A DNA stretch of 60,627 nucleotides, the filler included, from Circinaria calcarea (taxonomy: Eukaryota): the NCBI GenBank assembly GCA_051942165.1. It is 10 parts of 10 records of this genome, joined end to end, with 100 filler letters (N's around TTAATTAATTAA, not from the genome) between each part and the next. Parts side by side here need not be neighbours in the genome. Positions count along the whole stretch, not along the records: positions 24,333 to 30,305 come from JAVECS010001724.1; 9 more parts are not named here. One strand, written 5' to 3'. The position numbers and the translations under genes are program-made. Shown here piece after piece: positions 5,988 through 32,251 of this stretch. Numbering within the stretch: the stretch's first letter is position 1; the number at the start of each line of letters is the position of its first letter. The notes beneath the pieces were generated by a model. It had not been told where the DNA came from. It was given only the letters and a program-made list of their open reading frames with translations, and made no database searches.

Positions 5988-6087
5988 NNNNNNNNNNNNN
6001 NNNNNNNNNNNNNNNNNNNNNNNNNNNNNNNTTAATTAATTAANNNNNNNNNNNNNNNNNNNNNNNNNNNNNNNNNNNNNNNNNNNN
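5988..6087. other. Artificial contig spacer N44-TTAATTAATTAA-N44
   Basis: Identical 100-bp linker with stop codons in all six frames; preceded by a G20 run. Confidence 0.98.
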
Positions 6088-10599: not shown

Positions 10600-12069
10600 A
10601 TGGACGAGTACACACCAGATGCGTTTGCAAACAGGGACGAGCCGATACCAGCCATTAATGTCTCAGCCAGCAGCGGCACATCGGGTGTATCATCTGACAG
10701 CGAGAGCAAACGTAGCCGACTCAAGAATCTAATACCGTCGCCGAAATTGAAGAAAAAGACACAAGATGCAACCTCCGATGCGGGCGAGTCTGGTCACTCG
10801 TTGCAAGACCGCCTTTTCGCCAAGTAAGCTGGATGAGCAAGCTTTCCTTTAAGAGATGGCATGCTAAGAGGAGACATAGAATTCTACAGCAAGTCATTCC
10901 CGCCGAGGATATGAGGGATAACGGCGACGATGCTCAGGATACACGGTCGCCGAGATATATCAGCCGCCCTGGCTTCAGCCTCCCACTGATGACATATAAC
11001 TTTCGGCGGTTCAACGCCAGGTATGAAGACTACGGCTTCCCCTTTACCAGCTCATGCTGACCTTTTCATTCAAGGATCGGTGTCGTATTTGTCTTTCAAA
11101 ATCGCCTCATCCGTCTCTTGAGCTGGAGAACCCCCTCTCATACTCTTTCGTTTTTCATGATATATACCTTTATTTGCCTTAACCCCTATCTAATCCCTCT
11201 TATACCAATAATCATAACCCTCTTCTTCCTCCTCGTCCCCGCCTACTTAAGCCGACATCCTCCTCCTCCAACCCCCAGCCATACATACTCAATTGGCGGT
11301 CCCCCACTCGCCCCTCCACGAACCATCAAGCCCGCCTCGGAAATGTCCAAAGATTTTTTCCGCAACATGCGTGATCTCCAAAATAGCATGCACGACTTTT
11401 CTACCATCCATGACGCCTTGATTGCTTCCATAACACCCTCTACGAACTTCTCAAACGAACCTCTCTCCTCCACAATCTTCCTCTTTCTCTTTGTCATAGC
11501 CTGTCTCCTCTTCATAACATCTCATCTCCTCCCATGGCGCTTTATCGCACTCCTTTCCGGCTGGGCAGCCATCCTTCTCGGCCACCCGACCATCCAAGAT
11601 CTCGCCTCCCAAAATACCTACAAAGATCACGTCCGCCCTGCATCCGATACCGCGCATTCCTGGCTCGATAGATGGATCGCATCAGATATCATCCTGGACA
11701 GTGCCCCCGAGATCCGCGAAGTTGAGATTTTCGAACTCCAGCGCCGAACCGGCCTTCCCTCCCTCCCCTCCTCTCCCTCCTCCAACCTAGTTTCCGAATA
11801 CGAAAGCTGGGTCTTCAGCCCCATTCCCTGGGAACCACTTGCCCCGGCCCGAGTGGCAGGTGAGAGGGTAAAAGGCACCCGGTTTTTCGAAGACGTCCAA
11901 CCGCCCCGGGGATGGGAGTGGGAAAGCAAGAAATGGGAGTTGGACCTAGGGGCGAGGGAATGGGTCGAGGAGCGGATTGTAGGCGGGGTGGAAGTGGAGG
12001 TTGAGGGGGAGAGATGGGTGTATGATTTGGATGGGGAGTGGAGGCGGAGGAGGTGGGTGAGGATGGTGA
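10600..12069 (+). CDS. Pex24/Pex28/Pex29-family integral peroxisomal membrane peroxin, 3' end lost at contig break
   Basis: MDEYTPDAFANRDEP start, FSLPLMTYNFRRFNAR, LSWRTPSHT, SKDFFRNMRDLQNSM, EVEIFELQ and dysferlin-like WRRRRWVR. Introns at about 10824-10879 and 11022-11074. Confidence 0.9.
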
Positions 12070-12169
12070 NNNNNNNNNNNNNNNNNNNNNNNNNNNNNNN
12101 NNNNNNNNNNNNNTTAATTAATTAANNNNNNNNNNNNNNNNNNNNNNNNNNNNNNNNNNNNNNNNNNNN
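12070..12169. other. Artificial contig spacer
   Basis: N44-TTAATTAATTAA-N44. Confidence 0.98.
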
Positions 12170-13857: not shown

Positions 13858-15387
13858 ATGGCGGCCGTTCCCCAAACCTCCACGTCGAATGGGTTAGGGA
13901 TTGAGACGAACAGTTACAGTACCAGCGTTCATACCAATCCTGCTTCTACTACGATAGCATCCTATGAATTTCCAAGACATAAGCTTAAAAGAGTACTTCG
14001 AGATTCAAGCAAGGTCAGGCTGCTCTTCTGAATTTCGATTGCTTTCCGAACGCTCATTGGTAGTACTAGATTCCTTTAGTGCTTGTTGCCTGCGTATGTG
14101 CTTCCCTTGGCTCTGAACCAAAGGCAGTGCTTAAATTTTACTCACAATTTGCAAGGGGAGCTTCTCACCAATCACATTGCTCCACTTACGGTAACATCCT
14201 ATCTCAGCGTCTTCGTCATCCAAGCTAACAATCTTCTATAGCATGTTTAACATTGCTGCCGATTATGCCCGCCTAACTTCCGAGTATGAAGTGGTGGGAG
14301 GGTATGTGCCCACTTCATTACAGCTATCAACTCCATGGCATCTGACAGGGTAGGTACCTTTCACCCGTCGGCGATGCCTATAAGAAGGCCGGTGTGTTGT
14401 AGTCGTATATCTAGAAAACCTTGTATCGCTGACTGCATCTCGAAGGCCTTGCTCCGGCCAAACATCGCTTAGCAATGTGTGACCTGGCCGTTGCAACGCC
14501 TTCAAATTGGCTCATGGTTGATCATTGGGAAGGTCTTCACAAGGAATACCTGGTCAGTATTTCAACGTCCGTTACGATATATCGCGCTAAACCCGTATGC
14601 AGCCATCAGCACAGGTACTCGACCACTTTGATGAGGAATTGAATCGAGACGGCGGGATCGAATGCTCAACAGGAGAGCGCAAGCCGATTACATGTGCCTT
14701 GCTTGCCGGCTCGGATCTTCTGGCTACGATGGCGGTATAGATTTGTCTTCACCTCTCAAGATTATTGTTACTTACTTTTGCCAGATACCCGGTGTCTGGT
14801 CCGATGAAGTAAGTATATCAGTACTCTAAGACCAAGATGCCGAACAGCTCATTACTCTACGAAGGATCTCGATCATATCCTCGAACATCATGGAGCTTGG
14901 ATCATCGAACGTACGGGTACAGGTCAGTGCAGAGAGTTATCACCACTTCAAAGAACGTCACTCAATCTTGGTGAATACAGATATCGACGACTCACTCGAA
15001 GCACTGAAAAAGTATCGGTCCAAAATCCGCGTAGTGGATCAGTTGGTTCAGAATGACGTATCATCCACCAAGGTACTAATCCATTACTCTGAGAATCCAC
15101 CCTTTCTTCCCGAATACCCTGACTGACTAGAACCATCAGGTCCGAATGCTAATCAAACGCGACATGTCAATTCAATACCTAGTCCCTGATCCTGTTAGTC
15201 ACCCCCCCTAATCAACTCCAACCGTACTACCAACCTACCATCCCTCACACACCAGCACACTCACTAACAAAGCAACACTCGACAGATTATTCCCTACATC
15301 ACCGCCCACTCCCTCTACGCACAGGACGGGCCCCCGTCCCCGAGTCAGGGGAGGAGTAGGTTGGAAAGGGGGATTGATGTGCAATAG
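13858..15387 (+). CDS. NMA1: Nicotinamide/nicotinate mononucleotide adenylyltransferase (NMNAT), 12 exons
   Basis: Spliced product contains YEFPRHKL, IPLVLVAC-GSFSPITLLHLR-MF, YLSPVGDAYKK, WLMVDHWE, LLAGSDLL, PGVWS, NDVSSTKVR and SIQYLVP. All 11 introns have GT..AG ends and keep the frame. Confidence 0.9.
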
Positions 15388-16280: not shown

Positions 16281-16370
16281 GAGAGTTTTGAGAGTTTTGA
16301 GAGTTTTGAGAGTTTTGAGAGTTTTGAGAGTTTTGAGAGTTTTGAGAGTTTTGAGAGTTTTGAGAGTTTT
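16281..16370. repeat. Perfect 9-bp tandem repeat (GAGAGTTTT)x10
   Basis: Counted directly in the sequence. Confidence 0.95.
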
Positions 16371-18151: not shown

Positions 18152-18251
18152 NNNNNNNNNNNNNNNNNNNNNNNNNNNNNNNNNNNNNNNNNNNNTTAAT
18201 TAATTAANNNNNNNNNNNNNNNNNNNNNNNNNNNNNNNNNNNNNNNNNNNN
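18152..18251. other. Artificial contig spacer
   Basis: N44-TTAATTAATTAA-N44. Confidence 0.98.
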
Positions 18252-20308: not shown

Positions 20309-23073
20309 ATGCCTACACTCAACGTTCCCCCCGCTGGACTTGCTCTTGAAGGAGCTCCCAGCACCGACAACTCTCCGTCGAAATCCGAAGTCAAGCCTGC
20401 CCAAGTCCTACAGCTTAACCTGGACAGCGGATTACTGGAGGCCTTGTTGAAAGAAGCTCGTGCTGGAGGGCGAGGTGTTCAGCTAACACTGGGAAAGTCA
20501 CCGGTATGTATCCTCGTCGTCGGCACCGAGCCCATTGCTAACGTAGTTACACACGCACAGGCTCTTCAATTCGGAAACAAGTCCCACAAGATGGTGGCTA
20601 CTACTCCACAGATCTTGCGTACCGACCTCTACAGAGTCGCGGAAGTCAGCAAGGATAAGCACGCTGAAAGGCTCGCTCTTGTGGGGACGTTTAGTCACAA
20701 CATTGAAACGAGGAAACGCGAGAATGTCACTGCGAAAGCTGATCCGGCCATTTTGCAACTTCAGAACAGTCTGGCGGAAGCCAAGAGATTAAGGGAGTCG
20801 AATACGTGAGTCGTTGAGTCTCTCCCTCGACTGCCGTGCATGGCTCACATGTACTTGGTAGTACCATCTTCGTCAAGGACAATTCCAAACTCCCCCCCGC
20901 CAAAGGTGGAAAACGTCCCCCAGCAAAGATATCACCACCGACCCTCCTCAAGGGTCATCATCGTGCTGGACTCTTCGACGCCAGAAATGCTGCCCTCACG
21001 CGGTCAATGCCTACGAGCCCTTCACTTGGAGCTACCTCTTCATCCCTTCAAAAAGCCAACAATGGCCTCACTGCTAAATCTACGCCGAAAGATGATAAGA
21101 CGGAAAAGCTAAAGGCCCTCAAGGTTGCAATCTTACACGTACTTGCCAGTCGCTCCGTATCACAGAAGTTCCTCGCGTCGGCTGTGAATTGCACCGCCGA
21201 AGAATGCAAGCCGATTTTGGAGAAATACGGTCGAGAAGCTCGTCTGGATCCTTCCAAATATGACCTATCCGACAGAGGCTTCAAGGAATTAGACATCTGG
21301 AAATTCCCTTATAAGAACGAAAGCGACCGTGAAGCAGCGGTTGAGCGGGCTGTCTCTGCATTCGACCGCCAACGTATTTCCCGTGAAGAATACATTTGGC
21401 AAATGCTGTTGCCAAAAGAGAAACGAGGCAAGGGGATCATTCTGTCGAAGCTTCAACTACACAATGGTCCAATGCAGCGAGTCAGTACGCCACGCATCAA
21501 CGTTGAAAACGCAGATGGTGCTGGGAAGAATGAAACTTCGACGGGCAGTGACAGCGATAAACGGCCAGGCCGATTGGCTCCTCGGGATACAGAGTCTACC
21601 CGCGCGAGTTCGCAGGATCCTATCAAGAAAAAGAGAGTCAGCGAGAAGGAGGCCCAATCGAAACGATTGCTGTCAAAGAAACCCAAGAAACCCGTGGTGT
21701 CCTCTAAACCCAAAGAGAGCAAGCCAGCTGCTAAAAAGGAGACGAAGAAAGATCCCGCCGTGTCTGCACCAAAAGTCAAATCATCGGAGTTTGTTCGGGA
21801 CTCAGACGAAGAGGTGGATATGGAAGATTCCATTACTCTAGGTGTTCCCCACCCTAAAACCAAAGCCACCACCAATAGCAAACGCGCCGAATCAGCAGAG
21901 TCTACCAAGGTGGCCACTAAGGCGGCGACCAAGACAGCCAAGAAAGCGACTGCAACCTCAACTGCCCCAGTTAAGCCAAAGGCTGCTGCTGCTACTGCCG
22001 CCGCACCAAAGAAATCTACATCAACGGTCTCCGTCACTGCGGAGAAGAAACAAACACCACCTACATCGTCAAACTCAGCATCCAGCCAGAAAAGTATCAA
22101 TGGCAACCAGACGGCTCCTGCCCCCATGAGGAGGACCGTCTCTCATACTCGTAACACCAGTTCTCCGATCAAGCCCTCCCCGCTCGGTTCGTCACCTCCT
22201 ACCAATGCTTCGGACCTCGAAGTCAAGGCTCAATCGCTCCATCCTCCTGCCTCGGATCGCTCGTCCCCTGTTGTCTCGTCGCAAAAGGACGGCAGTACAC
22301 CTATAAACAAGGGTGTTGCACATAGGGTTAAAAAACCCATCGAGAACACATCTGAACACAGCCTAAAGCGTAAAGCCGATGATCTGGATTCAGACATTCA
22401 CAGCCATGGTGGCGATCCTGTACCCAACGGTGTTGATCGTCCTGCCAAGCGGCAACAGACTTCCAAGACCGAATCATCTACGTCCGAACACACCACGATT
22501 CCCTCGTCTACTTGCGGAAATTCAAGGAATCCTTCGTCAACTACCGAACATCCTAAGAATTCCTCCTCGGCCTCTGAAAACAACACGATTCCTTCCTCTG
22601 CATCCGCAAATCCTACGATTCATTCCGCTACATCCGAAAACCCTACGACTGCTTCATCTGCATCCGAACAAAAGCAAATTATGGTTTCCTCATCTACCTC
22701 TGATCGTACAACTGTCCCTTCTTCTACTTCCCAATCGACTTTGAAGCGCAAAGTTGACGAAATCGATTCTACTGCCCCTAGCCAGGGTACGGTATCTATC
22801 ACTAACGGCGTGAATCACCCTGCCAAGCGGCATCAGATATCCACGGTCTCTTCCTCTCCATCCGATAGTGGTAGCAGCATCTCCCCGCCTTTGACGACCG
22901 AGACGATCGAAATGGCGCGAAAGTTCAAGCAGTACTGGACCAAGTACGAACATGAACATCGCGAGCTTTCGGCTTTACCGGACCCGCCAAAGGAGAGGGT
23001 CGAGAAGCTGTTGAGGATGCATAAGACCTTGGAAGATATGAAGGCCAAAATCTGCAAGCGGGCGGCTCCTTGA
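20309..23073 (+). CDS. ELL-like RNA polymerase II elongation factor-type nuclear protein, 3 exons
   Basis: Introns at about 20504-20560 and 20807-20862. Winged-helix-like block ILHVLASRSVS..YDLSDRGFKELDIWKFPY, Lys/Ser-rich disordered middle, and C-terminal helical domain ARKFKQYWTKYEHEH..LLRMHKTLEDMK. Confidence 0.65.
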
Positions 23074-24232: not shown

Positions 24233-24332
24233 NNNNNNNNNNNNNNNNNNNNNNNNNNNNNNNNNNNNNNNNNNNNTTAATTAATTAANNNNNNNNNNNN
24301 NNNNNNNNNNNNNNNNNNNNNNNNNNNNNNNN
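24233..24332. other. Artificial contig spacer
   Basis: N44-TTAATTAATTAA-N44. Confidence 0.98.
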
Positions 24333-24796
24333 TTGATGAAGGATTTTCGATGTTAAGGGGATATCTAGGCCTTCCAGCTCTGTAACTGTAACACTGCCTC
24401 TCGACAGCGACAAGAGTGAAATGCCACGACTCTGTACAGACGGTATCTCGGTAGTACAGAAGGGGGACGTAGAGTGATAGGTGGGGTTCGATTGGACAGA
24501 CGCAGCAGCAGAGGCACAGGCAGACGCAGCAAGACGGGACTCGGTTGGTGTGGGTGAGCTTCGTTTCTGATCGATCTACGCCTCTCTGTTCAAACGCGGG
24601 GAATGTGCTAGCAGGGGGGTGAGCAAGGCATTGGCGTGGGGGTCTAGACCCAATCGGGGAGACGTCGACCATTTATTTGGGTAGCAGCTGTCAATGTCCG
24701 TTGTACTGGGCACTTTTCGTAGCCAAGAGCTTTAATTATATCTTCACAGGGCCAAAGGATATCACTGAACCAAAGAAAATCTAACGTCCAAAAACG

Positions 24797-25598
24797 ATGG
24801 CCGAATTACAATCCGCACCGTTGAACTGGGAAGCTTCCGCAACCACCACCCACCCCCAGGTCTCGTCTACCCTTCCTCCAGAGGTAGCGGCTTGTCTGAG
24901 GAATGCGAGATTCGTTAGTCTCCACGGTTCAACATCTCCGGCGCTCTTTCTGACCTGACACCCAGCTCCATCTCGCTACTTGCACCAACCTCTTTCCCCA
25001 CATCTCTCTCATGAACTATACCTACCTGCCCTCGACGCCATTCTCTCCTCATCCGACAATCATCATGACCACAAATCCCTCCTCGAAGAAGACCTTGAAC
25101 CTCATCTCCAACCCGCGCGTTTCACTGCTGGTCCACGATTGGGTTTCTCACCGTCCACCAACACGAAATCCAGACCCGGCTCGGGAAGGATCTCCGCCAC
25201 CTCAGGCCACACGATCTAGTCTAGCGAGCTTATTGTTGAACATCAACACGAGCGCTTTGAGTAGCATCTCCACGACAATCAACGGAGTAGCTCAGCTAGT
25301 GCAGAGTGGCAGCGAAGAGGAGCGGTGGTGCAAGGAAAAGCATTTGGAAAACAATACCTTTGGAGACCAGGCAAGGGAAGAGAGGGGATTCTTCGGGCAA
25401 ATACAGAATGCTTCCGCCAGCGAGGGCGATGGTGGAACGAGTTGCTTCATTGAAGGGGAGGAGGTTCGGGTGGTGCTCGTCAGAGTCAAGGAAGGGAGGA
25501 TAGCGGACTGGAAGGGCGGAGTGAAGGATTGGACGATCATCTCCGAGGATGAAGAGAGGGACCGAGGACGGCATGGGATGTTAAATGGAAGTATCTGA
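24797..25598 (+). CDS. Pyridoxamine 5'-phosphate oxidase-like FMN split-barrel protein (YLR456W/YPR172W-like), 2 exons
   Basis: LPPEVAACLRNARF-LHLATC..PHISLMNYTY..SKKTLNLISNPRVSLLVHDW; intron at about 24914-24965. Confidence 0.88.
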
Positions 25599-26560
25599 TT
25601 TTGGCCGATTTGCATTGGCGGGCGTCAGATCGGAGCATAACTGAGGTGACAGCTTATACGGGACTGGTGTCTGTCGATTCGATCCTTTAACGAATCGATT
25701 GACCCTAATGACGGATATAAGTCAATAGAAATCTGAAACGGGTTCTTCTGTTGCGTTACTTTGCAAGCCAGAAGTGACAAGTAGCTTTTTAATGGGAGTT
25801 GAGTCCAGAATTGGCAAAAGTGTTATTTGTATCCGGAGACGGTTTACTCACTTCTTAAAAGTACTTCAGTATGCAGAGCGTGTAAGGGTTCCTCCACCCT
25901 AACCTGGCAGTAGGCATCTTGGCCCACCCCCTACACCACTTAACCACTCGGTGATAACAGTGTTCCCAATAACCATGATATAGTTGAATGACTACTTTCC
26001 AGAAACCTCACCTTGAAGTCAACTCGGCTCTAGGAACGGTCCAATACTAACCCTTTCCACTTCCCATCATACTCTCCGTAGATCGATTGGTGTTTTGTGC
26101 GGGAATCTTTATATAAATGCTCCGTTGATGATAGACATGTGCCTTCAGGAGACTGGCGACGAATAATAGAATAGCGGTATAGCGCGTGACCTAAGCTTTT
26201 TTCACAAGATTCTCCTTGGGCACACCAATTCCTCCTGACTCGTGGAACCTATACATATACTTATCAACTCAGGTCTTCCGAATGTATGAAGTAATCTTCG
26301 TATCAGGAAAGTCTGGTAAGTGAAGCTTCGACACGTGAAAGGCACTTGTTTTACCCTTCATAATTTAAACGCTTGTACGTCATTTTGCATATCTACGGTA
26401 ATCGCGTAACAACCCTGTTTTTCAACGGCGACGTGAGTTTATTTATGTACCCGCCCTTCTCGGTCATTTGAGGATTACTGACTTGTCATTTTGCCGGCAT
26501 CTTCAATCTTTAGAGGATAATTCACTTGTCAAAGACGCTCATTGGGCGCCTATTCCAAAG

Positions 26561-28104
26561 ATGGTCTACATACGACAGAAAGATCTCCCTGGATTGAAGA
26601 AATACAAGTATTCCGGAGTAGATCACTCCTTGGTGTCACGATATGTCCTCAAGCCTTTTTACAACAATGTGGTCATCGGCTGCTTTCCCATGTCAATGGC
26701 GTAAGGATATATGTTATATTCCATGAGGAGCGTTGCTAATACTCTGACTGTATTTTAGTCCAAACGCCGTAAGTACCGGTGCTAGTGTCAATAGAAATGC
26801 CTACTCAGTTGAAGTTTCTAGATTACTCTTGCGGGCTTTAGTTTTGTCGTTTTGAACATTTTGACCATGTTGTGGTATAATCCTACGCTTGATCAGGATA
26901 TGCCGAGATGGGTCTATGCAAGCTGGTCACTCGGGTTATTCTTATATCAAACCTTTGACGCTGTTGACGGGACACAGGCGTATGTATACTTAACCGCAGA
27001 AAGTTGCGGGATAGACACGCTGATTGAATCTCTACAGGAGGAGAACACATCAAAGCGGACCTCTGGGCGAGTTGTTCGACCATGGTATGAATAAAATCTT
27101 TATAAGGGATAAAACACTAATCCGAACGTCTAGGCGTTGATGCCTGTAACACCGTGCTAGAAGTGCTTTTATTCGCGGCGGCAATGAACCTTGGCCAGAG
27201 TTGGAACACTATACTTACCCTATTCGGCGGTATGTCAAGGAGTTCTGTACATTTATGTTCCAGTGTCTGATTTGAAACCTGCAGCTACGCTAACATTCTA
27301 CGTACAAACATGGGACGAGTATTACACTCAGACTCTCACCCTTGGGATAATCTCGGGCCCAGTCGAAGGTATCCTTACGCTCTGTATCGTCTACGCCATC
27401 ACGGCTGTGAAAGGGGGCGGTAGCTTCTGGCAGCAATCAATGTTACAAACCTTTGGCGTTGCCAAGGGTGGCATTATCCCTGACTACATCTACGACCTCG
27501 CTTTCAACGAGTGGTACATGGTATACGGCGGTATAGTACTTGTATTCAATACCCTTCAAAGGCACATGTTCTATTATCCTCTATATCCTTCCTCAATCAA
27601 CTAACTCCATGCAGCATCTTCAACGTAATGTCCGTTCGCAAAGCTCGCTCCCAGTCCACCCGAACCCCTCTCCCTGGCTTAATCCCGTACTTTGCAACCT
27701 GGACTCTCGTGGCCGCCTACCTCTATCTCCAGCCTATAATTCTCCACCACCACCTCATCCCTTTTGTCTTCTACGTCGGCCTCATCAACGCCTACTCCGT
27801 TGGTCAAATGATCATTGCGCATCTGGTCAAATCGGACAAGTTTCCCATGCAAAACGTCCTCACTATCCCCCTCGGACTTGCTGTGCTGGACTCTATCGGG
27901 TTGAGGACCGGATTGTGGCCTAGTGCGTTGGGCGATGGGACCTATCAGATCGGCTTCATGTTTGCGTGTTTGGGCTTGGGGATCGGGGTGTATGGCAGCT
28001 TTGTGTATGATATCATCACGACGATTTGTGATTATATGGATATTTGGTGTTTGACGATTAAACATCCGTATAGCGAGGTGGATTCGCTGAAGAAGCAGGG
28101 GTAG
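26561..28104 (+). CDS. EPT1: Choline/ethanolamine phosphotransferase (CDP-alcohol phosphatidyltransferase), multi-exon
   Basis: [58 protein letters not shown] (CDP-alcohol motif), QTWDEYYT and DIWCLTIK. Confidence 0.93.
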
Positions 28105-28813
28105 GTAGTATTTAGAGAGGGGGACAGTATGGATTGTGGGATATGTATGCTTGCGTACTCGGCCATGCTGTTGTCTAGCCATGAGTTATTTTAATTGTGT
28201 CCTATTAGATTAGATACCCGTTTCCGTCCTTGATTATTCTACAGTTGGAGATAGGTTTCATGCCTCCACGCCCGACTAATGCCAGACATGTCTTACCTAC
28301 TCAGAGCAAAACTACTCATGCCTGCAAACCTAGTAAACAGGAGCTCAGCACCATTACTTGAAGAACATAAAGCCATTACCCGATACCGCCTCTCTCTTCG
28401 AACTCAGGAAGTAGCCTTAACCCCTTATCTCGAACTCTCCCCTTGTTATTACCCACTCGCCTACAGGAAAGCCCTTGTATACATGTCCCAGACTAAACGC
28501 GGATAGATCAGCCAGGTATCTTCTCCCTGAAAAGGACAGATCGTCATGGTTTATGGAGTAGTTGGATACGAGTTAGTTGGTTGGAAAGGCTTTTCGTGAG
28601 GGGAGTTGGATGCGGGGGATACCATGATGGTGATGGTGAGTGGTTGAGAGTAGGAGAATGGGGGAACGGAAAGGAAGGGGCTTCTCAAACTCCTCGATTT
28701 GGAGTTTTGGGAAGTAGCACAGGGAAGAAAGATATGACTGGACCCTGGAGTCCAGAATTAATTTAAGAAGTCAAGGAGACTTAATCAGTGTTCAGAAAGT
28801 CCAAAACTAAACT

Positions 28814-29068
28814 CGCCAGAAAGGAGAGTCGAACCCACGCCTCCGGTTTCCCTCTTCCCCGTCCCCCCAAAAATCAAATCCCCACAAATGGCAAAAGCTC
28901 CTCACCTATGACCCGAAGGTCATAGGTGAGTACGAAACTCACCCGACTCTACCCTGAGAACAGGGCCGAGTAGGGATGTTGTTTACTTACCTCAGTCGAG
29001 TGGGTGCAGGGGTTACGCTAACCCAAACTCCGTAGAGTCTGCGCCGTAACCACCTCGGCCACCCGACC
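28814..29068 (-). ncRNA. Unidentified structured RNA in a tRNA-Leu-like Pol III frame (A box at the 5' end, T-run terminator, downstream B box)
   Basis: 5' GGTCGGGTGGCCGAGGTGGTTACGGCGCAGACTC resembles a Leu/Ser tRNA 5' half. GGAGGCGTGGGTTCGACTC, about 200 nt downstream, resembles a Leu tRNA 3' half with B box. Between them lie hairpins capped by cUACGg (29024-29041) and cUUCGg (28901-28930, 13 perfect bp). Confidence 0.7.
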
Positions 29069-30078
29069 AAGGTACCTGCTTTGGTTAGTGAGAGGTATGG
29101 TCGCTATAATGTATTTAAGGTCATAATTTGCAAGAACACGGAAATTTTAAAGTGCAGTGGATTCCTAGTGGGCACATGCTGCGAAGATGGCATATAGTTT
29201 GATTGTTGTACGAACACATTGATGGTTATAGGAGAAATTTGTTAGGTGCACTTGAAGAGGTTTCTTTACAAGAGCGGTCTGTACCTTTACTTCCCCCTTG
29301 GTGCAAGCACTACGCCTTGTACATGCTTATATCATGCGTTTCATACACTTATGCAAGCGCTGCGCGTCGTTACATGCTTGGTTTCATGCATAAATATAGC
29401 CTACTATGAGAAGACATCCCCACAGTAGAATCTCTTCAAGAAATGGATTGACTAGACAGATAGCAACCACACTAACACAGCAGTACGAAGTTGGCAATCA
29501 ACTATGAAAGTTTACTGACGCACATACATCCTGCCCATTAGGTGAAAGGCTTTTACTAGAAGCTTGAGTCTCCACGCAGAATAGATGACATGAAGTAATC
29601 GGAGGATACCCTACGTAGCTAAGGCTGTCAAGCAAGGGCTCTTGGTTCTGCTCAGTGCAAACGATCGAGGGCCCAAGGTATGGGTATCCCTTACTGGATA
29701 CTACTGATCGATTACTGTCGTGTCGTGTGGTTAACAAGGATTACAACTTAAGCGCGATGAGCGTCTGGCGTCTGCAATCGGCTACCATACGGCCTAAATG
29801 GTACAGTCAGGCTGAGGCCTCAACCGATACCTAATCATCCGTCTAGAAATATTCTCTGTTGCCTGAGACCCAACAATGAAACAAATGGGAGATTACTGAT
29901 TTGCAGATATAGCGGACTGCATTTCAGGGAATTTCCATCCGCTAAAATATTACAGAATGAGAAAATCTATGCGCTAAGAAAAGGATTTTCTCCAGCCTTA
30001 GACTTCTTGCTGTCCTAACTGGGAATATCGGCTTATTGGCTTATTGGCTTCTGCCTTTTGTCACAGTACGGTAAAGCT

Positions 30079-30305
30079 ATGTCAACCCCCAAAACCCAGG
30101 GGTTGAAAATATTGATGCTCCACGGTAAATCATGTCCTCGATTCGATTACGCCGTTCGTCAGGGTACCGTTTCATGGCTGACCGATCTCCAGGCTATACG
30201 CAATCAGGACCTCTCTTCCACAGCAAAAGTCGCGCTCTGGAGAAACTCCTGTTAAAAGTCTTCCCTTCGTCCACTCTACATTACCCAACAGCCCCGATTC
30301 CTCTG
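30079..30305 (+). CDS. FSH1/OVCA2-family serine hydrolase, 3' truncated
   Basis: LKILMLHG-YTQSGPLFHSKSRALEK..YPTAP; one intron at about 30125-30192. Confidence 0.88.
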
Positions 30306-30405
30306 NNNNNNNNNNNNNNNNNNNNNNNNNNNNNNNNNNNNNNNNNNNNTTAATTAATTAANNNNNNNNNNNNNNNNNNNNNNNNNNNNNNNNNNNNNNN
30401 NNNNN
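30306..30405. other. Artificial contig spacer
   Basis: N44-TTAATTAATTAA-N44. Confidence 0.98.
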
Positions 30406-30484
30406 TGCCGAGAGATCCCTTTTCATCTCCATATGGGCGGATAGCATGGACGGTTGATCCATTTCGTAAAATTTTGATTCGGCC
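30406..30484. repeat. Exact 79-bp direct copy of 31376-31454 (BIG1-like exon) at the contig start
   Basis: Identical sequence, offset 970 bp. Confidence 0.9.
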
Positions 30485-31101
30485 TTTCTTCCATCCCTCC
30501 CTCCCCTATCACTCTTTCTTTCATTCATTCTTTCTTCCTCCGTCAGTTCGCCCAAAACCCCCCAAAACCCAAAACCAAAAAAACCCTTTTCCCCCGAAAA
30601 CGCCCAACCAAGCGTCATGGAGACAACTTATCTTTTTCCAGCGAAATTGCCGAGACTGGATAGTTATACAAACCTCTTAGATCTTACAAACTTCGGCAGT
30701 CGAAGTTTCTTGGTATGGTTGGGGTGTAGTGTCAAGGTTTAGCCGTAGAAGAGTTATTGGAAAGGTGAGAGGGAGGGAAGAGGGGGAAGGGGAAGCGCGG
30801 AGAGTTGGGTTGGGTTCGGGTTCGGGTTGGGGTTTTTGTTTACTGACCGAGGAAGGGGGGAAGAGAAACCTCAATAGAGATCTCCAGCACCCATGACCAG
30901 CCAGAAAAAGTCAAAAAACCACATTAACGCAACACAGCAAACATACAAAATAATCACAAGATCTAGAGCCAACATAGGATAACGATTGTCACCCGCGAAA
31001 TACTTGTCGTCCTACTTCGTAGCCCCAATCCTTTTACAATATAATCTTGTTAGAATATACAAGCGGGATATAAGTCCCCCTCCCGTCTTCCCTCCCGGAA
31101 T

Positions 31102-32251
31102 CTACTGCTGCTGCTGCTTCTTCTGAGCCGCTGGACCCATTTCCTTATCGAACGCGGCGTACGAGACCTGCAAGCTCGAAAGCGCAGAGATACCGACGTA
31201 GAGGATCGAGAAGAGGAGGAGGCCGACGACTAAGCCCATGAAAAGACCTGAGATAAATTAGTGTCATTGCAACATGTAACGTCGCATGGAAATTCTAACC
31301 CGGAGTAAAGAACTGATATCTCTCAAACAGAGGTCCAGGAGGCAGCGTACTGTTCCTATTCGTCGAGTTTCCGAATGCCGAGAGATCCCTTTTCATCTCC
31401 ATATGGGCGGATAGCATGGACGGTTGATCCATTTCGTAAAATTTTGATTCGGCCATTAGGGCTTGGTGGGGCGTCAAAAGGGGAGTGGTGGTGTAGATGA
31501 CTGTAAAGTTGGGGGAGGAAAGGACGTCGAGGATAGAGGCGAGGAAGGGACCTGGGATGAGATTAGTTTTAGAATGATGGGGGAAAGGATGGGAGTTACC
31601 ATTCTCGTATAGTACTTCTGAGCGGGATGGGCCAGTGGGTAGAGCTGGGAAATCGAGCTTGATGATCCGAGGTTTCATGTCGTCGACAATGTCGAATAGA
31701 CCGGCTAACGAGCGTCTATTAGCCATCATCTCTAGCAAAACCTTATATGAAGCTGTAGTGTATAGGTCGCGAAGTTCGGTCTTCGGTCTTATCAGGTACT
31801 TACTTGAAGCATCCACGCTCAGAGTCCCAGCACCGCATCTCTCCTCCAGAGTCCTGACCAAAGCTGGGGTATCAATCTCTCCTAAGACATCCGTAACCGT
31901 AAAGCTTGATCGAATCCTCGAATCCTCTCCCGATATCCATCTCTGGAGGTGGGGCGACGAGAGCTTAGCCTTGTAATCGACCGCACTTACGCCGGGCTGC
32001 GATACGATAACGTATACATCCGAGGGACACTTCTCAAGCACTGATGCAAGAGTTTGCGTCAAGGAGAAAGCGGAGACGATCTTGGGAGACGAGGCAAGGA
32101 TTCTGTAGAGGACGACTTAGCAACGGACTTGGGGGCGGCTGAAGTTGGGGATATACTCGGAGGTCGAAAAGAAGATGAGCGGAGAGGTATCTTGGAAGGC
32201 TGTTGCTGTTGAAAGACCTAGGGCAAGTGCCCCTAATCGTAGTATTTGCAT
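31102..32251 (-). CDS. BIG1 / Voa1 (V-ATPase Ac45/S1-like) ER membrane protein, multi-exon
   Basis: Signal peptide plus AFQDTSPLIFFST; CPSDVYVIVSQPGV; C-terminal LFERYQFFTPG-LFMGLVVGLLLFSILYVGISALSSLQVSYAAFDKEMGP. Confidence 0.85.

Follow-up and report, generated by a model that had tools for sequence, protein, structure and literature searches.

Fungal Pol III transcripts beyond tRNA, 5S, U6, SRP, and RNase P RNA are very few, and they have been defined almost entirely in yeasts. Outside the fungi, the tRNA-derived 5' domain of BC1-type rodent RNA folds as a hairpin, not as a cloverleaf. Among the described systems that come closest to the locus reported here, SNR6, the U6 gene of Saccharomyces cerevisiae, is presented in the passages cited as having a TATA element upstream, an intragenic A box, and a B box in the 3' trailer past the terminator (PMC5356446). 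The same passages present yeast ZOD1 and YGR033C as ancient relics of tRNA genes that are still used by Pol III (PMC5356446). AfuSINE2 of Aspergillus fumigatus, as outlined in the part of the source cited, comprises low-copy, tRNA-related SINE-like elements of 140 to 493 bp, with a tRNA-unrelated body before oligo-T (PMC5063351).

Here, we describe a hairpin-rich unit in a window of 60,627 nucleotides from Circinaria calcarea (assembly GCA_051942165.1), the window being the whole stretch of DNA that was analyzed. The unit is a minus-strand stretch of about 260 bases, of which the part from 29074 to 28895 is predicted to fold as a rod-like head and two hairpins. It is neither a tRNA nor a split tRNA. 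The reading that we tentatively prefer, with a probability of roughly 45%, is that it derives from a tRNA gene and is a Pol III-type unit, part of a small family of SINE-like elements limited to close relatives. Judged from its sequence, "undescribed Pol III RNA" is a possible description of its putative product.

Location and predicted fold of the unit

Runs of N with TTAATTAATTAA at their centre are spaced about 6,050 to 6,065 nt apart along the window, which shows it to be a chain of contigs of about 6 kb and not one continuous piece of genome. The contig with the hairpin-rich unit extends from about 24,350 to 30,305 of the window. Within it, the unit sits in a 2-kb spacer, and both bordering genes are on the plus strand. 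The last exon of the first neighbor ends at 28104, and its product resembles the C terminus of cholinephosphotransferase 1. That exon matches residues 262 to 391 of 393 of PDB entry 8urt (E = 1.1e-11), so the name EPT1 that the earlier note had given to this neighbor holds at the level of the CPT1/EPT1 family. The second neighbor begins at 30079 and is presumably FSH1-like, judged by its first residues.

The sequence features named in the earlier note (A box, hairpins, T4 run, T5 run, and B box) all lie on the minus strand where it had placed them (Table 1), and its description of the element as unusually structured was borne out. Indeed, in a fold scan of all 90-nt windows of the 60 kb, taken in 10-nt steps on both strands (n = 11,767), the head (28988 to 29077) and the body (28888 to 28977) hold ranks 1 and 2, and they keep the top ranks once G+C is corrected for. 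The 255-nt stretch as a whole has a minimum free energy of −114.5 kcal/mol (z = −4.24). The 87-nt head reaches −53.4 kcal/mol on the minus strand (z = −6.65), a value that 0 of 200 shuffles equaled, versus −37.9 kcal/mol on the plus strand (z = −4.30). The minus-strand head is the more stable by 15.5 kcal/mol, and the body is of near-equal stability on both strands. The 37-nt core of hairpin ii (28944 to 28980) folds at −14.8 kcal/mol (z = −3.95), the region around hairpin iii (28895 to 28943) gives a fold z score of −5.59, and apart from the 13-bp hairpin no perfect stem-loop in the window reaches 9 bp. The 69 nt past the T5 run (28800 to 28868) are unstructured, with a z score of +2.06 and all 200 shuffles folding at least as well, and the folded unit therefore stops at the T runs.

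The helices that the earlier note had drawn in the head are present, but the helix that closes it has 16 bp and begins 6 nt upstream of 29068, which had been counted as the first nucleotide. That the closing helix takes in 6 nt of upstream sequence argues against a tRNA-like processing of the 5' end. The head is predicted as an extended rod without a cloverleaf. A cloverleaf-like alternative to the rod (−53.4 kcal/mol) comes to −39.7 kcal/mol; it costs 13.7 kcal/mol more, and its ensemble probability is near 1e-10.

The proposal that two cUNCGg-type loops and the G-U pairs favor the minus strand also stood. There are 11 G-U pairs in the minus-strand fold versus 2 in the plus-strand fold. When hairpins with a 4-nt loop were counted over both strands of the whole window, stems with G-U pairs included, loops of the cUNCGg type were found in 3 of 878 hairpins with stems of at least 5 bp and in 2 of the 137 with stems of at least 7 bp. 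Both hairpins of the latter class are minus-strand hairpins of the unit, at a distance of 117 nt from each other. A DNA palindrome offers no reason for two such loops on the same strand, and this pair therefore indicates that the minus-strand RNA is, or recently was, what matters; we take it to be the best internal evidence for an RNA from that strand. In these predictions, the structure is confirmed as exceptional, far beyond chance, and biased to the minus strand.

Table 1. Features of the unit and matching contigs of the relative (metagenome run X1), in positions of the window
Feature	Position	Strand	Description
AT-rich TATA-like stretch (TTAAATA, then TTATAG)	29104-29118	minus	36-50 nt upstream of 29068; candidate TFIIIB/TATA site
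Head	28988-29074	minus	16-bp closing helix; rod-like interior with GGUUAC/GUAACC helix and cUACGg hairpin
Closing helix of the head	29074-29059 with 29003-28988	minus	16 bp, 3 G-U pairs
A-box motif TGGCCGAGGTGG	29050-29061	minus	Motif scan
Hairpin CAGACUC-UACG-GAGUUUG	29024-29041	minus	7 bp, closed by cUACGg; sequence and fold
End of closing helix and single-stranded linker with GGUAAGU	28979-28991	minus	5'-splice-site-like word; likeness by sequence
Hairpin ii	28940-28978	minus	Interrupted stem, UUCU loop; fold
Hairpin iii	28901-28930	minus	Perfect 13-bp stem, closed by cUUCGg; repeat and hairpin scan
T4 run	28893-28896	minus	4 nt past hairpin iii; candidate weak Pol III terminator
T5 run in GATTTTTGG	28869-28873	minus	Candidate Pol III terminator
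Distal piece with B-box motif GGTTCGACTC at 28835-28826	28814-28852	minus	Weak, unstructured tRNA 3'-half-like remnant
X1 contig, CPT1/EPT1-family exon	27500-27905		23 of 406 letters other, 0 gap letters
X1 contig, 312 nt, unit	28801-29093		26 other letters, 26 gap letters
X1 contig, 241 nt, unit	28886-29093		14 other letters, 5 gap letters
X1 contig, 2,114 nt	29052-29128		13 other letters, 0 gap letters; continues unlike the window
X1 contig, 155 nt	29065-29137		3 other letters, 2 gap letters
X1 contig, 3,465 nt	29065-29118		3 other letters, 0 gap letters; continues unlike the window
X1 contig, 2,919 nt	29302-29548		44 other letters, 2 gap letters
Same 2,919-nt X1 contig	29611-29999		53 other letters, 12 gap letters

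Searches for tRNA genes and known families

The earlier note had read the locus as a split tRNA-Leu gene, with a tRNA-like 5' half and a Leu-type 3' half, and this interpretation did not hold up. At threshold, neither ARAGORN nor the Rfam tRNA model finds a tRNA gene. ARAGORN reports 0 tRNA genes in the window, and again 0 with introns allowed; at lowered thresholds it makes a single call in which the head is not used, and introns of 0 to 300 nt do not join the halves. The Rfam tRNA model (RF00005) has no match at E values up to 10 on 28500 to 29400, 28985 to 29075, or 29010 to 29068, and the head given as a 3'-truncated tRNA is still without a match. When the distal piece is given as a tRNA truncated at its 5' end, the score is 11.2 bits (E = 3), below the gathering score of 29, and two T-stem pairs are non-standard; the names given to the two halves have no backing from tRNA models. 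By eye, the distal piece lacks complementarity to the 5' arm, and the partner of that arm is 29003 to 28988, within the head. The complement of the 5' arm follows the "variable-arm" hairpin directly, and the head, which has no T arm, is thereby closed upon itself. A tRNA gene is ruled out by the ARAGORN count, by the lack of an Rfam tRNA match on the head, and by the score of the distal piece. A split or intron-containing tRNA-Leu gene is likewise ruled out, since the 5' arm pairs within the head, the distal piece is unstructured, and the halves are not joined. The exact D-arm word of the head has 22 matches across 185,579 prokaryote species (one genome each), 0 of the 22 in a tRNA gene; in a test limited to prokaryotes, the word is, by sequence, no known tRNA arm. 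The first 30 nt of the head we take to be like the D arm of a class II tRNA, and the distal piece to be Leu-like, a likeness that we treat as a lead.

The view that the unit has no U1 to U6, SRP, RNase P/MRP, or ribozyme identity was upheld. The Rfam 15 set includes snRNAs, SRP, RNase P/MRP, snoRNAs, ribozymes, and the Aspergillus Afu_* families, and 0 of its 4,227 families match in the window at the gathering score. Weak, unrelated matches alone appear at E values up to 10, the best of them (E = 0.71) outside the unit. RNase P/MRP, SRP, U1 to U6, and snoRNA were rejected in the lack of an Rfam match, with H/ACA and C/D boxes absent by eye. Telomerase RNA was rejected as well, a template-like word being absent from the minus strand of the spacer, as were a Helitron end, a solo LTR, and a MITE, whose termini do not fit by eye, with no TIRs at the edges of the unit. 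A 14-nt word of the head was not found in the full text of the literature. The 5' end of the head has a 16-nt exact match at 11577 to 11592, in coding-like sequence; the match does not extend, and we take it to be chance.

Copies and relatives

The rest of the window, roughly 54 kb of the same assembly, yielded no second copy. A degenerate 24-nt pattern of the head gave 0 matches in metagenome contigs, and the head and hairpin patterns gave 0 and 0 in viral contigs. Homologues beside CPT1/EPT1-family genes, where the earlier note had advised looking, did not turn up with blastn or nhmmer. The synteny set was made from 252 candidate stretches, of which 84 were confirmed and 80 kept, each of the 80 loci carrying a relative of the CPT1/EPT1-family C-terminal exon at 46 to 77% amino acid identity. 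At these loci, the best blastn match to the unit has an E value of 1.2 and nhmmer finds nothing; no class-II A-box head appears in a motif scan, no similarity appears in the spacer, and ARAGORN calls no tRNA gene except for one spurious call with a 2,301-nt intron. A single-sequence covariance model of the 180-nt unit (R1) returns its self-match alone in 504,212 bases. The lack of a match at the 80 loci implies that the unit is phylogenetically shallow or non-syntenic.

A close relative was found in one DNA metagenome run (X1, share 0.05), with contigs matched at a likeness of at least 80% (Table 1). In this relative, the unit is kept at about 90 to 93% identity, and the stretch of the spacer from 29302 to 29999 is kept at about 82 to 86%. 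Among the X1 contigs listed, the body is present in two versions and the junction between head and 5' flank in five, and there is one contig each for the CPT1/EPT1-family exon and for 29302 to 29999; none of those listed lies over about 27920 to 28760 or 29180 to 29263. Likeness to the window ends at 28801, 29118, and 29128, and the match of the 155-nt contig ends at 29137. Judged by their lengths, the 155-nt and 2,919-nt contigs may join as one syntenic locus, to which the 3,465-nt and 2,114-nt contigs cannot belong. The divergence of these two long contigs from the window suggests more than one genomic context. There are more versions and contexts of the head and 5'-flank junction than of the flanking genes. 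This may be a sign of a small family of repeats or genes, as seen in contigs of a metagenome, which cannot tell paralogues from different species. The dispersed multi-copy distribution that the earlier note had named as evidence against its own reading is thereby hinted at, among the contigs listed, but not established. On the reading that we prefer, the unit probably represents one member of a small family of SINE-like repeats or genes.

The listed substitutions of X1 within the unit number three, at 29063 (helix), 29058 (junction), and 28985 (linker). That at 29063 is the sole helix change among them, and it turns a G-U pair into A-U.

Readings of the unit and known systems compared

Were the unit a tRNA-gene-derived member of a small SINE-like family, TFIIIC would recognize the A-box motif (29061 to 29050) and perhaps also the B-box motif (28835 to 28826), and TFIIIB would act on the AT-rich TATA-like stretch (29118 to 29104). 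Pol III would start near 29080 to 29075 and stop at the T4 or T5 run (28896 to 28869). In tRNA genes, transcription starts 10 to 12 nt upstream of the mature end, according to the passages cited (PMC5356446). The product would be an RNA of about 180 to 210 nt, made up of the rod-like 87-nt head, the linker, the interrupted hairpin, the 13-bp cUUCGg hairpin, and a U tail. We infer the Pol III transcription, the RNA ends, and the family and copy status of the unit. As to function, we favor a selfish or neutral RNA, with a TFIIIC-bound relic of the yeast ZOD1 type as the upper limit.

The TATA-like stretch, A box, T runs, and B box stand in SNR6 order on the minus strand, and the A-box, B-box, and Sm-like words are each at chance frequency. 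The A-box motif class occurs 30 times in the window (26.35 expected) and the B-box class 2 times (1.84 expected), and from these counts we estimate at about 0.13 the chance that, somewhere in the window, an A and a B motif stand on the same strand no more than 300 nt apart. The B-box motif lies 34 nt past the T5 run and 215 nt past the A-box motif, and the TATA-like stretch falls within 29065 to 29137, which is common to the window and three X1 contigs. The earlier note had likened this arrangement, with an A box inside and a B box beyond the T runs, to SNR6, and the likeness to the gene as described in the passages cited holds at the level of motifs (PMC5356446).

Several observations count against a SINE. 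Of the A and B boxes looked for in a SINE head, the head of the unit carries an A-box motif only. The B-box motif lies past the T runs, outside the putative transcript, so retro-copies would lose it. The X1 contigs share 50 to 70 nt upstream of the head, which is more in keeping with a gene promoter than with a SINE. The window holds no second copy and no clear target site duplication: an AT-rich 12-mer, 10 of 12 letters identical, stands at 29108 to 29119 and 28756 to 28767, around the 340-nt unit, and it is one of six short chance-level direct repeats in 651 nt. No A-rich, simple-repeat, or LINE-like tail was seen at the unit.

The main rival to the SINE-like reading is the view of the earlier note: a functional orphan ncRNA gene, present once, whose split promoter of the SNR6 kind would drive a Pol III RNA of about 185 to 205 nt that is itself under selection. 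We consider this view unlikely. It is just as unlikely that the unit is the founder of an undescribed Pol III RNA family of about 185 to 205 nt in one Pezizomycotina lineage, its head and hairpins under selection and its expression driven, in the SNR6 arrangement, by a TATA-like element upstream, an A box of the class-II-tRNA type, and a B box past the terminator. An orphan gene would agree with the exceptional, minus-strand-biased structure and its two cUNCGg loops, with the lack of a matching Rfam family, with the G-U to A-U change at 29063, and with the sharing by X1 of both the unit (about 90 to 93%) and the 50 to 70 nt upstream of the head. The layout also agrees with the description of SNR6 in the passages cited (PMC5356446). 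However, with no homologue at the 80 CPT1/EPT1-family loci by blastn, nhmmer, or covariance model, any conservation is shallow, and among the X1 contigs listed the 5' part occurs in more versions than the flanks do, two of them in other contexts. The perfect 13-bp stem, which lacks any G-U pair, looks young, and the pair of A and B motifs could be chance.

More doubtful is a dead relic without RNA function, in which insertions, internal duplications, and DNA-level palindrome formation would have broken up a tRNA gene of the class II type, or a pair of tRNA fragments, with the hairpins as by-products. The sole tRNA-model match is indeed weak, distal, and 5' truncated (11.2 bits, E = 3), the T and acceptor stems are broken, and a perfect palindrome could have originated at the DNA level. 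An 8-nt internal duplication (CACCCGAC, at 28940 to 28947 and 29060 to 29067), together with alternative pairings in the unit, such as that of ACUCACC with either of two GGUGAG words, suggests a history of duplication; the competing pairings may be either a switch or a trace of that history. DNA palindromes, however, account neither for same-strand UNCG loops with C-G closure (2 of 137 hairpins) nor for the 15.5-kcal/mol advantage of the minus-strand head, and the unit is kept at about 90 to 93% in a relative whose contigs turn unlike the window at 28801 and at 29118 to 29137.

We regard as improbable a reading in which the unit belongs to a Pol II product or to regulatory sequence of the spacer, whether an lncRNA or an upstream or antisense transcript of the neighboring genes, and in which GGUAAGU and GGUGAGU would be real splice donors. 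These two words, both like the 5' splice-site consensus, stand within 60 nt of each other on the minus strand. The same spacer holds the stretch from 29302 to 29999 that is also kept in X1, and the 90-nt fold scan shows a further stable fold in it, at 29601 to 29690 on the plus strand. Against this, no ORF of note runs over the unit on either strand, the sixth base of GGUAAGU is altered in the relative (U to C, at 28985), and the candidate introns, judged by eye, are 37 nt long or cut through hairpin iii.

Hardly credible is an Sm-class Pol II small RNA, snRNA-like or spliced-leader-like: a donor-like GAG/GUAAGU stands at the foot of the first helix, Sm-like words (AUUUGUGG and GAUUUUUGG) follow the hairpins in an order of helix with donor word, hairpins, and U-rich site that resembles spliced-leader RNA, the T5-bearing word GATTTTTGG agrees with the Sm-site consensus, and X1 hints at several copies, but words of the Sm type are no commoner in the window than chance predicts (2 matches versus 3.23 expected), no 3' stem-loop comes after it (z = +2.06), and no Rfam snRNA or spliced-leader family matches at E values up to 10. 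To our knowledge, there is no report of spliced-leader trans-splicing from fungi.

A strongly folded, tRNA-promoter-bearing unit without a library match could represent either a further inconspicuous family of the SINE-like kind or a small RNA that is truly new. Were several such families to recur across Pezizomycotina, they would make up a neglected class of tRNA-derived structured RNAs and, possibly, TFIIIC sites shaping chromatin near genes. Were the unit a relic, the finding would be an ordinary one.

Set beside BC1 RNA, the unit is alike in a 5' domain predicted as an extended stem and not a cloverleaf, and the two have no sequence relation. SNR6, in the passages cited, shares with the unit a TATA-type element upstream, an A box that is transcribed, and a B box downstream of the terminator (PMC5356446). 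The unit, in contrast, has no U6 sequence or Rfam U6 match, and its layout is one of motifs, in which 34 nt separate the T5 run from the B-box motif. RPR1 and SNR52 are described in those passages as having tRNA-type promoter elements 5' of a non-tRNA Pol III RNA, which is a further likeness, but their A and B boxes lie in a removable 5' leader, whereas the head of the unit has an A-box motif only (PMC5356446). ZOD1, YGR033C, and RNA170 are alike in being tRNA-derived or unconventional Pol III elements, with weak transcription and no known RNA function in the account cited; they are single loci defined by ChIP and transcription, whereas the unit is known from its sequence (PMC5356446). A sequence relation between them and the unit is not to be expected. 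Compared by eye, none of the 8 sequences in the Table 1 of the AfuSINE2 source resembles the unit (PMC5063351), whose head is without a B box, which has no convincing target site duplication and no repeat tail, and which is far more folded. The likeness of AfuSINE2, as described in the part of the source cited, to the unit would lie in its short fungal elements, low in copy number, whose degenerate 5' part is related to tRNA, bears Pol III motifs, and is missed by tRNA finders, and which also have a tRNA-unrelated body and an oligo-T tract (PMC5063351).

Duplicated words within the unit and a short match to its head

The hairpin-rich, tRNA-related locus on the minus strand (the unit) carries an internal 8-nt duplication, which reads CACCCGAC on the plus strand at both 28940-28947 and 29060-29067. 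Over these two stretches and 28901-28943, the word ACUCACC is a single pairing partner contested by three GGUGAG words. Judged from the sequence, the RNA of the unit could adopt alternative pairings. Elsewhere in the window, on the minus strand at 11577-11592, 16 nt are identical to the first bases of the head, the predicted rod-like fold of the unit, and include the start of its A-box word; this match falls within apparent coding sequence, and the likeness around it does not extend past the 16 nt.

Other stable folds and the neighboring spacer

Stable 90-nt folds were also found outside the unit (see the table). One of them lies in the plus-strand spacer at 29302-29999, upstream of a gene whose first residues look FSH1-like. 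This spacer holds no ORF of 70 amino acids or more and is nevertheless retained at about 82 to 86% in the relative represented in DNA metagenome run X1, in which 62 nt of the window (29548-29611) are swapped for 70 other letters.

Stable 90-nt folds of the window outside the unit
Position	Strand	Stability (kcal/mol)	Standing
14418-14527	-	-42.1	Next in stability after the folds of the unit
21838-21937	-	-40.8	Next in stability after the folds of the unit
29601-29690	+	-40.1	Very stable; rank 12 of 11,767

Make-up of the window and its repeats

The window consists of roughly 6-kb contigs, apparently ordered by decreasing length, chained through N runs with TTAATTAATTAA mid-run (5988-6087, 12069-12169, 18152-18251, 24233-24332, 30306-30405, and onward) that recur every ~6,050 to 6,065 nt; features on separate pieces therefore carry no genomic adjacency. 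At 16281-16370, the 9-mer GAGAGTTTT stands in tandem in about 10 perfect copies. The first copy of an 82-nt direct repeat (30406-30487 and 31376-31457; 99% identity, 970 nt apart) begins exactly at a contig edge, so the repeat may stem from overlapping assembly or from duplication in place.
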